The notes beneath the pieces are model-generated. The model saw only the letters and a list, made by a program, of their open reading frames with translations. It was not told the DNA's origin and made no database searches. The position numbers and the translations under genes were made by a program. Shown one piece after another: positions 9,449-10,272 of a stretch of DNA of 44,039 nucleotides. Position 1 is the stretch's first letter, and each line of letters starts with the position of its first letter. This DNA is from Escherichia phage NHEP3. The stretch is from sequence record PQ511147.1. One strand, written 5' to 3'.

Positions 9449-10213
9449 TTAGCGCGGGATACCGCAAATCTCGTTGAGAGTTTTCACATCCAGCGCCACC
9501 GCCGTGGATTTTGGCTTGTCCGGGTAAGGGATGAATTGCTCAACTTCAGGCCATGCCTTAATCAGCTTCTTGTCAGTATTGTGCAGGTCAAGCACACCGG
9601 TAATGGTCAACTTGAATGCGTCATACTTCGCACGCAACTCGCGACGCGCCTTGTCGTTGCAGTCCAGGCGCTTGCAGAAGTCATGGTCCGCCGGGTAGTC
9701 TACGCGACCGCGCGGAAGATATACCGGCAGCGCTTTCCCATCCTCGTCCACTTCACACACTGACGCCAGCAAAACTTCTTCAAACCCAGGAACAATATCG
9801 CTAAGATCCGGTGCGAGCTTATTCATATACTTGTCCTCCCAGTATCCGCGGTGTTGGCGGAATCTTCGCCCGTCACCACTCAATGATAGGGTACGAACAT
9901 TACCACCTGCGTTGATTTCGAAAGTGGCGTCATAAACGCTGCCTATACCTTTCGGGAGGCCTGTGTCATAGCGATATGTTGCCTTGTTGGTGAAGACGCT
10001 GACGCCGTACATCGGCGACTGGTCGCCGCTGAATGTCTTGATATGCTCGCGGAGCGCTGCGAATGTGCGAATACCTTCCGGCATACAGTCCATCGTAACG
10101 GCATAAGCCAGATCACGCGAGTCCATCATTATTAGTTTGGCTTCGGTCGCGATTTCGTGGTCGCGCAGGATGTTAGCCAGAATCTGATTTTTAATGCATT
10201 TAGTCAGTCTCAT
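9449..10213 (-). CDS. hypothetical protein (255 aa), opposite-strand insert in the head module
   Basis: GAGGA Shine-Dalgarno before the ATG at 10213; own promoter with TTGGTTGCA motifs; convergent terminator at its 3' end. Confidence 0.6.
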   Translation of the reverse strand: MRLTKCIKNQILANILRDHEIATEAKLIMMDSRDLAYAVTMDCMPEGIRTFAALREHIKTFSGDQSPMYGVSVFTNKATYRYDTGLPKGIGSVYDATFEINAGGNVRTLSLSGDGRRFRQHRGYWEDKYMNKLAPDLSDIVPGFEEVLLASVCEVDEDGKALPVYLPRGRVDYPADHDFCKRLDCNDKARRELRAKYDAFKLTITGVLDLHNTDKKLIKAWPEVEQFIPYPDKPKSTAVALDVKTLNEICGIPR

Positions 10214-10242
10214 TTTTGTGTCCTCGTTGTTGGTGTGCAACC

Positions 10243-10272
10243 AATATACTGCAACCAACATTTGCAATGCAA
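10243..10272 (-). promoter_or_regulatory. sigma70-like promoter (TTGCAT-N18-TATATT) overlapped by two TTGGTTGCA half-sites
   Basis: Read on the minus strand; the motif copies are at 10237-10245 and 10250-10258. Confidence 0.45.

Follow-up and report, generated by a model that had tools for sequence, protein, structure and literature searches.

What is a gene doing on the opposite strand in the midst of the structural genes of a phage? This question is raised by nmad5 of Escherichia phage NHEP3 (sequence record PQ511147.1), which lies on the minus strand between the spanin and scaffold genes. All positions below refer to the analysed stretch of 44,039 nucleotides, which we call the window. A first-pass annotation of the window had described at this place an open reading frame (ORF) of unknown function with a promoter of its own, and had seen in it a moron with a host-takeover, superinfection-exclusion or anti-defence role. 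We show here that nmad5 is a conserved, dispensable and non-structural accessory gene, transcribed against the structural genes. As to its role, we lean towards the view that it is an early gene under a promoter controlled through the motif TTGGTTGCA, and that its product is a non-catalytic protein acting as an adaptor.

The gene is already known: it has been named and studied experimentally in Dhillonvirus, and the window adds no new gene. What the present analysis adds is that the modification label of the family stems from gene neighbourhood and nothing else, that the long and short forms of the protein are an artefact of annotation, that the escape residue falls in what aligns as the most conserved motif, and that the promoter seems to belong to a shared set with twin operators. 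Nmad5 is a widespread phage family, and in Dhillonvirus nmad5 is one of only two known loci that control sensitivity to the Tmn defence. These points are relevant to work on Tmn sensing and to the engineering of Dhillonvirus phages for therapy.

Reading frame, start codon and protein family

The gene and its ribosome-binding site (RBS) are located as follows.

9449..10213, minus strand: nmad5 coding sequence, 254 amino acids and a stop codon, Pfam family PF18757 (Nmad5); identified from the ORF, Pfam, PHROG 1965, the ratio of nonsynonymous to synonymous substitution rates (dN/dS) and the MRLT start
10221..10225, minus strand: Shine-Dalgarno sequence GAGGA, 7 nucleotides before the ATG; read from the sequence and kept in relatives

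The listed minus-strand ORF extends over 9449..10267 and would give 272 amino acids if read from a TTG codon. This version was ruled out by the MRLT opening shared by all homologues and by the RBS before the ATG at 10213-10211, which is the start codon. The 255-amino-acid ORF described earlier is thus a real gene, with a length of 254 rather than 255 residues as judged from the MRLT start of the homologues. Pairwise dN/dS against five orthologues is 0.09-0.19, indicating a real protein under purifying selection. An antisense ORF on the plus strand (9434-9763) was also considered and ruled out, since dN/dS favours the minus-strand frame.

The protein matches the Pfam Nmad5 profile over its entire length (positions 1-206 of 206; E 7.4e-55; 186.6 bits against a cut-off of 27) and PHROG 1965, a group labelled 'unknown function' (E 1.3e-57). 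The earlier description as an ORF of unknown function therefore no longer holds for the family, which is known from full-length matches, but it still holds for what the protein does. An exhaustive profile search found 660 cluster representatives (50% identity) of the family at E <= 0.001, and tblastn found homologues in 339 phage records, including Pseudomonas Yuavirus, Bordetella, Vibrio, Serratia, Stx-converting and P22-like phages.

Among 142 family members, R2, G104, T213, L217, W221, P222, E223, L246 and N247 are near-invariant; only about half of the members retain D176 and H177. The conserved motifs take the form of an N-terminal R-L-T..I helix, a T-x3-L-x3-W-P-E stretch and a C-terminal L-N..G-x-P, and the window protein has all of their residues (R2, L3, T4 and I11; T213, L217, W221, P222 and E223; L246, N247, G251 and P253). 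Residues from about 81 to 160 form an insert that is peculiar to Dhillonvirus-type proteins. No convincing set of catalytic residues was seen across the 142 members, and Nmad5 is probably non-catalytic.

An AlphaFold2 model built from an input of 18 sequences has a predicted local distance difference test score of 84.6 and a predicted template modelling (TM) score of 0.78. The predicted fold comprises a unit of three helices at the N-terminus, a sheet of four strands, one long helix spanning 178-209 and short helices (214-227), and a C-terminal helix sits behind a low-confidence linker. A Foldseek search with this model gave no match in the PDB (best E 0.3, TM 0.16) and only other Nmad5 proteins in BFVD. 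Profile searches of PDB sequences returned only noise (E > 0.1), NCBIfam and PADLOC contained no matching family, and the searches made turned up neither a biochemical activity nor a solved structure for any Nmad5 member. The structure check suggested by the first-pass annotation thus yields a confident model, but one with no counterpart in the PDB.

Position in the genome

The 1.7-kb region around nmad5 has matches in 158 phage records, nearly all of them Dhillonvirus phages of Escherichia or Shigella, with identities up to 92.5%. The gene order of the window is that of Shigella phage EP23, with a circular permutation of about 4.4 kb; by these comparisons the window is a Dhillonvirus, namely an EP23/HK578-like coliphage. 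On the plus strand, nmad5 is preceded by the head-morphogenesis gene (7897-9000) and then by overlapping Rz/Rz1-type spanin genes, and beyond it lie the scaffold gene (ATG at 10362) and the major capsid gene (Pfam Gp13-like). Both the ORF list and the EP23 annotation thereby confirm an opposite-strand gene between the spanin and scaffold genes.

This location, and nothing else, speaks for a component of head assembly or decoration whose gene lies on the opposite strand by chance. The first-pass annotation had named homology to a structural head component as the finding that would speak against its own view; such homology was looked for by sequence and by fold, and none was found. Furthermore, a protein of about 254 amino acids is absent among the rows listed of the lysate proteome table of Dhillonvirus EE09, a phage with nmad5 deleted is viable (PMC11846954), and homologues in other phages are found in replication or early modules. 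The head-component reading is effectively refuted, and we assign it almost no probability.

The spanin genes merit a separate remark. They occupy 8963-9434 on the plus strand and close the portal/head-morphogenesis operon; the genes for holin and endolysin are far away, at about 1690-2700. The best start of the Rz1 ORF is the ATG at 9204, which gives a signal peptide and an LSAC lipobox. In the RefSeq record of EP23 the Rz1 start is placed later, so that the lipobox is omitted there.

Promoter, TTGGTTGCA boxes and terminator

The elements that would control transcription of nmad5 are the following.

10267..10272, minus strand: -35 hexamer TTGCAT, with an 18-nucleotide spacer to the -10 hexamer; read from the sequence, TTGCAT or TTGCAA in relatives
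10243..10248, minus strand: -10 hexamer TATATT; read from the sequence, kept in five Dhillonvirus relatives
10250..10258, minus strand: distal TTGGTTGCA box, inside the promoter spacer; found by motif search, kept in relatives
10236..10244, minus strand: proximal TTGGTTGCA box, over the -10 hexamer and the predicted transcription start; found by motif search
9423..9443, both strands: bidirectional intrinsic terminator formed by one GC-rich hairpin; found by terminator scan, folding energies -15.5 and -15.9 kcal/mol
10280..10307, plus strand: divergent promoter-like site TTGAGA-N16-TAATAT with an upstream TG, directed towards the scaffold and capsid genes; found by promoter scan as a consensus match only

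The sigma70-like promoter TTGCAT-N18-TATATT proposed earlier is found on the minus strand as described, and position 10272, at which the first-pass annotation ended the unit, is the 5' end of its -35 hexamer. The module consisting of the -35 hexamer, twin boxes, -10 hexamer, ACCAACA leader and GAGGA is kept in EP23, bov11C2, phiEco273, SM_A8 and SM_S22. It is constant across these five phages, whereas the first gene behind it differs. In two metagenomic contigs, L004 and L005, whose Nmad5 proteins are about 42% identical to that of the window, twin boxes of the TTGGTTGCA type likewise stand ahead of the nmad5 unit, beside TTGCAA...TATAGT or TATATT.

The motif TTGGTTGCA occurs at 11 sites in the window against 0.38 expected, a number reached in none of 100 shuffled sequences, and all 11 sites are syntenic in EP23, with variable spacers between the boxes. 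Three further pairs lie over -35/-10-like hexamers and are followed by an RBS and ATG: 31075/31058, ahead of a homologue of a published anti-Tmn gene (see below) and of Dam; 29399/29386, ahead of a DUF6378 gene; and 43792/43823, ahead of an ORF of 105 amino acids. Single boxes are found at 26345, before a Cor homologue, and at 40571, before a helix-turn-helix (HTH) gene. In addition, the nmad5 leader, TATATTGGTTGCA(c/t)ACCAACA..GAGGA, recurs at 43818-43850, where the leader at 43823, TATATTGGTTGCAtACCAACAtGAGGA, is a near-copy of it.

The overlap of the promoter with a motif shared by other promoters, which the first-pass annotation had pointed out, is thus upheld, with two copies here and a motif type common to the promoters of the replication module. 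The boxes look like an operator for a shared regulator, and with such a layout nmad5 would be expressed together with non-late genes. We infer the 'early' timing of nmad5 from this sharing of the motif with replication-module promoters. A full-text literature search for TTGGTTGCA returned only unrelated primer sequences, and no transcriptome paper on Dhillonvirus was found in the literature search.

As for the 3' end, a terminator is present there, but the convergent terminators described in the plural turn out, by terminator scan and folding, to be a single bidirectional hairpin. The U-run of this hairpin is clean on the plus strand, but the minus-strand run, UUAAUUAUUU, is interrupted. With its own promoter and terminator, and with no homology to head proteins, nmad5 fits the earlier view of an independent, non-structural transcription unit.

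One gene of the window deserves mention in connection with the boxes. The 109-amino-acid protein encoded at 40768-41097 (plus strand) has an HTH of the sigma70-region-4/homeodomain-like kind (Pfam HTH_23, Sigma70_r4_2) and is called a 'transposase' in relatives; its gene is situated between the TTGGTTGCA box at 40571-40579 and the primase-helicase gene, which follows closely. It is a candidate for the regulator that would act at TTGGTTGCA.

Conservation and the cassette slot

A moron would be expected to carry its own promoter and terminator, to be present sporadically and to deviate in base composition. The first of these properties is suggested for nmad5 by the elements listed above; the other two are not seen. 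At least 80% of Nmad5 is encoded in 144 phage records. The position and strand of the gene are identical in EP23, bov11C2, phiEco273, SM_A8 and SM_S22, and also in L004 and L005, where identity has dropped to about 42%. The L003 homologue (35% identity) belongs to a larger block on the opposite strand, flanked by the Mu-F and capsid genes. Its GC content is 52.3% against 54.6% for the genome, and its GC content at third codon positions (0.61) equals that of the scaffold gene. If a moron is taken to mean a recent insertion of sporadic occurrence, nmad5 does not qualify, in view of the 144 records, the fixed position down to about 42% identity and a base composition like that of the neighbours.

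The sole absence seen is in Teewinot (NC_073053, about 1800-1920), where codons from about 36 to 248 have been lost by a deletion at GAAATCTG microhomology. This deletion agrees with a dispensable nmad5.

The variable element is instead a cassette slot between the nmad5 promoter and start codon. This slot is empty in the window, phiEco273 and SM_S22; it holds a gene of 104 amino acids in bov11C2 (1754-2068) and SM_A8 (1146-1460); and in EP23 (4295-4807) it holds the 170-amino-acid gene EP23p08 followed by a 3' remnant of the 104-amino-acid gene. The cassette junctions fall in the repeated leader/RBS sequence AACAACGAGGA, and a small GGGGCgaaaGCCCC hairpin lies between the cassette and nmad5. 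The annotations of EP23p08 as 'DNA polymerase III beta subunit' and as 'RusA-like' were not adopted; we regard it as weakly clamp-like only, because its match to the Pfam beta-clamp family (DNA_pol3_beta_2) is sub-threshold, at 20.3 bits against a cut-off of 27.

A moron-type gene is found elsewhere in the window. A 70-amino-acid lipoprotein gene in the tail module (26072-26284, minus strand) has a MKTLIMICAVLLAGC lipobox and matches PHROG 1119, 'Cor superinfection exclusion protein' (E 2e-26). It is preceded by the TTGGTTGCA box at 26345-26353, and the equivalent gap in EP23 carries no annotation. We take this Cor homologue to be a genuine moron-type gene.

Relation to DNA modification

A problem arises from the family name, which derives from an association by gene neighbourhood. 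It implies that Nmad5 is an enzyme modifying DNA or nucleotides, or an obligatory subunit of one, so that Tmn would sense modified DNA; a modification-enzyme role is also what Yamashita et al. assume (PMC11846954). To examine the genomic contexts, we picked examples manually from annotated phage records and metagenomic contigs and compared the neighbours in 10 Nmad5 contexts by all-against-all BLASTP. Nmad5 forms part of thymidine-hypermodification clusters in Yuavirus PAC6 and in Bordetella phage CN2, together with aGPT-Pplase, a kinase, radical-SAM/PLP enzymes and a thymidylate-synthase-like hydroxymethylase. A homologue of the PHROG-757 'DNA methyltransferase' adjoins Nmad5 in the sampled context L006, is near it in phage ST22 and is encoded in the window at 31405-32100, and the window also encodes Dam (30068-30580); in the window, both of these genes lie about 20 kb from nmad5.

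On the other hand, the window contains no hydroxymethylase, aGPT-Pplase or nucleotide kinase, and many Nmad5 phages, such as the P22-like Kapi1 and the Stx phages, lack a hypermodification cluster. The family has no invariant acidic, His or Cys set, and its fold matches no enzyme. Moreover, deletion of nmad5 leaves Tmn sensitivity unchanged, which is hard to square with the sensing of an Nmad5-dependent modification (PMC11846954). We consider a modifying enzyme or subunit quite unlikely. The label 'DNA modification enzyme' is unsupported, because there are no conserved catalytic-looking residues and no base-hypermodification pathway in the genome.

A link to DNA metabolism as such is supported. 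The window itself encodes a DUF2800/PD-(D/E)XK nuclease, an Enc34-type single-stranded DNA-binding protein, PolA, a VRR-NUC protein, an SNF2 helicase, a primase-helicase, Dam, an HNH endonuclease and a polynucleotide-kinase-like phosphatase. In L006, Nmad5 lies beside a DUF2800 nuclease, PolA and an N6/N4 methyltransferase; in ST22 and Smarc2 it lies in Dam/replication modules; and in Kapi1 its gene belongs to the PL operon, with cI on one side and cIII/kil/recT on the other. A weak C-terminal match in a Vibrio myovirus is located between tail genes. No neighbour is universal across the 10 contexts, and DUF6378 and PHROG-757 proteins appear in 3 contexts each.

The PHROG-757 protein of the window (minus strand) has 231 amino acids; it matches its group with E 2e-82 and no Pfam family even at E 10. 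Its homologues are immediately downstream of Nmad5 in L006, occur near it in ST22, an Enterobacter phage, and are absent from EP23.

Relation to Tmn sensitivity

Yamashita et al. (2025, Commun Biol 8:290) studied the same gene in Dhillonvirus SM_A8 and SM_S22 (PMC11846954). Escape mutants on Tmn-expressing E. coli carried the nmad5 change K216E in SM_A8 and K296E in SM_S22; reversion of the change restored sensitivity and the engineered change gave escape (PMC11846954). A phage with nmad5 deleted was viable and did not escape Tmn, and the gene could not be cloned and was apparently toxic in E. coli (PMC11846954). In the window, the residue in question is encoded as follows.

9566..9568, minus strand: codon AAG of Lys216, the Tmn-escape residue, within D214-K215-K216-L217; SM_A8 Nmad5 also has 254 amino acids with K216

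The window protein is 85% identical to that of SM_A8, of the same length and collinear with it, and keeps K216 within DKKLIKAWP. Of the 142 family members, 99 (70%) have K or R at position 216, which adjoins the near-invariant L217, so that in the alignment the escape residue falls in the most conserved motif of the family. The 334-residue 'long' Nmad5 of SM_S22 (PP627283, 2006-3010) requires that its first 80 residues be read through the promoter, antisense to the scaffold gene, and the same RBS and MRLT start are found inside this annotation. As the sequences read, the reported long and short forms are an annotation artefact and there is one protein of 254 amino acids. With the SM_S22 start over-extended, K296 there corresponds to K216 here.

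The genetics can be read in more than one way. Nmad5 may be the direct trigger that Tmn senses, like RIIB of phage T2: a 2026 preprint reports that Tmn is activated by direct binding of this early phage protein, that one of its residues uncouples binding from activation, and that rIIB nonsense mutants escape Tmn (PMC13001434). That escape mutants isolated independently from two phages share one K-to-E change, and that its reversion restores sensitivity (PMC11846954), fits such a trigger, as does the precedent of an early protein whose activation of Tmn is abolished by single-residue changes (PMC13001434). However, loss of a trigger should permit escape, and K216E escapes while the deletion does not (PMC11846954). 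The deletion phage is still Tmn-sensitive (PMC11846954), whereas T2 rIIB nonsense mutants escape (PMC13001434), so Nmad5 is not the sole trigger, and we regard the direct-trigger reading as very unlikely. Conversely, loss of an anti-Tmn gene should sensitise the phage, and the deletion leaves Tmn sensitivity unchanged (PMC11846954). The anti-defence role suggested by the first-pass annotation is accordingly borne out to the extent that a genetic link to Tmn has been published, but the wild-type protein is no anti-Tmn factor, its deletion neither sensitising nor rescuing the phage.

The actual anti-Tmn gene of Dhillonvirus is a gene other than nmad5 (PMC11846954). The window encodes at 30540-30995 (minus strand, boxes at 31058-31083) a 151-amino-acid protein that belongs to PHROG 10530 (labelled 'DNA ligase') and is 74% identical to SM_S22 CDS0035. 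The counterpart of CDS0035 is missing from SM_A8 between the Dam and HNH genes, and the helical N-terminus of the protein fits the description in the paper (PMC11846954). We infer that this gene is the homologue of 'ORF35', the anti-Tmn gene of that paper, in which case the window has an anti-Tmn homologue behind a twin TTGGTTGCA promoter, like nmad5.

Proposed role of Nmad5

The following sequence of events would account for the observations on the favoured reading. Host RNA polymerase with sigma70 would start nmad5 at TTGCAT-N18-TATATT, and the two TTGGTTGCA boxes over the spacer and the -10/+1 region may act as an operator. The regulator would be shared, with the same box found at replication-module promoters as well as at those of the anti-Tmn homologue and the Cor exclusion gene. 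The hairpin at 9423-9443 would end the nmad5 transcript and halt the converging portal-to-spanin transcript before it enters nmad5 in antisense, and the scaffold and capsid genes would restart from the divergent promoter-like site at 10280-10307.

Early in infection, the protein would then act on DNA-metabolism machinery through a conserved surface predicted to comprise the N-terminal helix R2..I11, the helix T213-x3-L217-x3-W221-P222-E223 and the tail L246-N247..G251-x-P253. Lys216, in the T213-E223 helix, would lie on the key surface, where the charge reversal K216E might alter an interaction such that Tmn is not triggered; removal of the whole protein would not have the same effect on Tmn. 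An interaction surface is supported by the finding that a missense change but not deletion gives escape (PMC11846954) and by K or R at 216 beside L217. The activation of Tmn through direct binding of T2 RIIB, where a single residue separates binding from activation, points the same way (PMC13001434). Whether the machinery is that of the phage or of the host, we hold the assignment of Nmad5 as a non-catalytic binding or adaptor protein with low confidence.

Several points weigh against this reading. The -35 hexamer agrees with TTGACA at 3 of 6 positions, which is below the threshold of the consensus scanner and explains why the promoter is absent from the consensus scan; by consensus, the promoter would rate as moderate. 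The TTGGTTGCA promoter at 43792/43823 heads an operon running towards the lysis and terminase genes, so that the motif may mark phage promoters generally and not early ones. 'Non-catalytic' is argued from missing signatures, and R2, T213, E223 and N247 could form an unusual active site. Finally, the presence of Nmad5 inside the thymidine-hypermodification clusters of Yuavirus and Vojvodinavirus, as well as the PHROG-757 gene both directly beside it in L006 and in the window, would suit a role in modification.

Alternatively, Nmad5 may be a dedicated host-takeover or anti-defence inhibitor that works by binding a host protein, for example a nuclease, a repair enzyme or some defence effector apart from Tmn. 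An inhibitor would suit a late-region gene that has a promoter and a terminator to itself and is dispensable in the laboratory (PMC11846954), naturally lost in Teewinot and toxic when cloned in E. coli (PMC11846954). It would also suit the Kapi1 homologue, which is found among accessory early genes of the PL operon, and the occurrence of TTGGTTGCA in front of the Cor homologue (26072-26284) and the anti-Tmn homologue (30540-30995). However, PADLOC and NCBIfam give no match, nmad5 is near-universal and fixed in position in the genus, unlike fast-turnover anti-defence genes, and the wild-type allele gives no protection against Tmn (PMC11846954). We therefore judge an inhibitor of this kind unlikely.

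A bolder form of the adaptor reading, in which we place limited trust, is that Nmad5 is not a modification enzyme but a non-catalytic early adaptor that is specific to phages and has a distinct fold. Its T213-L217-WPE helix would be read by Tmn, directly or via a partner, much as RIIB is read in T2. In this form, nmad5, the anti-Tmn homologue, Cor and the replication genes would constitute a twin-TTGGTTGCA Dhillonvirus regulon under one regulator, for which the 109-amino-acid HTH protein (40768-41097) is the candidate.

A repeated octamer in the window

Besides TTGGTTGCA, the octamer CGGCAGCG (reverse complement CGCTGCCG) is strongly over-represented. It has 30 sites on both strands, for example at 777, 3305, 4204 ... 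41399, against 4.0 +/- 2.0 expected and a maximum of 9 in shuffled sequences. One site is within nmad5 (9725-9732), and the flanks of the sites are not conserved. CGGCAGCG is the commonest 8-mer both in the window and in EP23, where it occurs 28 times, and the related words ACGGCAAC and CAACGGCA are likewise enriched.

Comparison with known systems

The closest systems are the nmad5 genes of SM_A8 and SM_S22, which share position, strand, promoter module, terminator and K216 with that of the window; the window and SM_S22 are also alike in having no cassette gene. They differ from the window only by sequence divergence.

The Nmad5 proteins of the Yuavirus/M6-like and Vojvodinavirus phages belong to the same Pfam family and have the N-terminal RLT helix and the T-x3-L-x3-WPE ... 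LN..G-x-P motifs. However, they have about 186 amino acids and lack the Dhillonvirus insert at about 81-160, and their operons contain the aGPT-Pplase, kinase and hydroxymethylase genes, none of which is in the window.

Classical morons, such as the Cor gene, resemble nmad5 in their autonomous promoter and terminator and in their location on the opposite strand in the late region, here also in the TTGGTTGCA motif. In contrast to them, nmad5 is found at a constant place throughout the genus and in relatives whose protein is about 42% identical, and its base composition is typical of the genome. The moron-like variability belongs to the cassette slot upstream of nmad5, not to nmad5.

T2 RIIB is similar to Nmad5 in being non-essential, in probably being made before late infection, and in that a single-residue change abolishes Tmn defence, although there is no sequence relationship between the two proteins. 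T2 rIIB nonsense mutants escape Tmn, whereas the nmad5 deletion phage does not. Direct binding to Tmn has been shown for RIIB; for Nmad5 it is a possibility.

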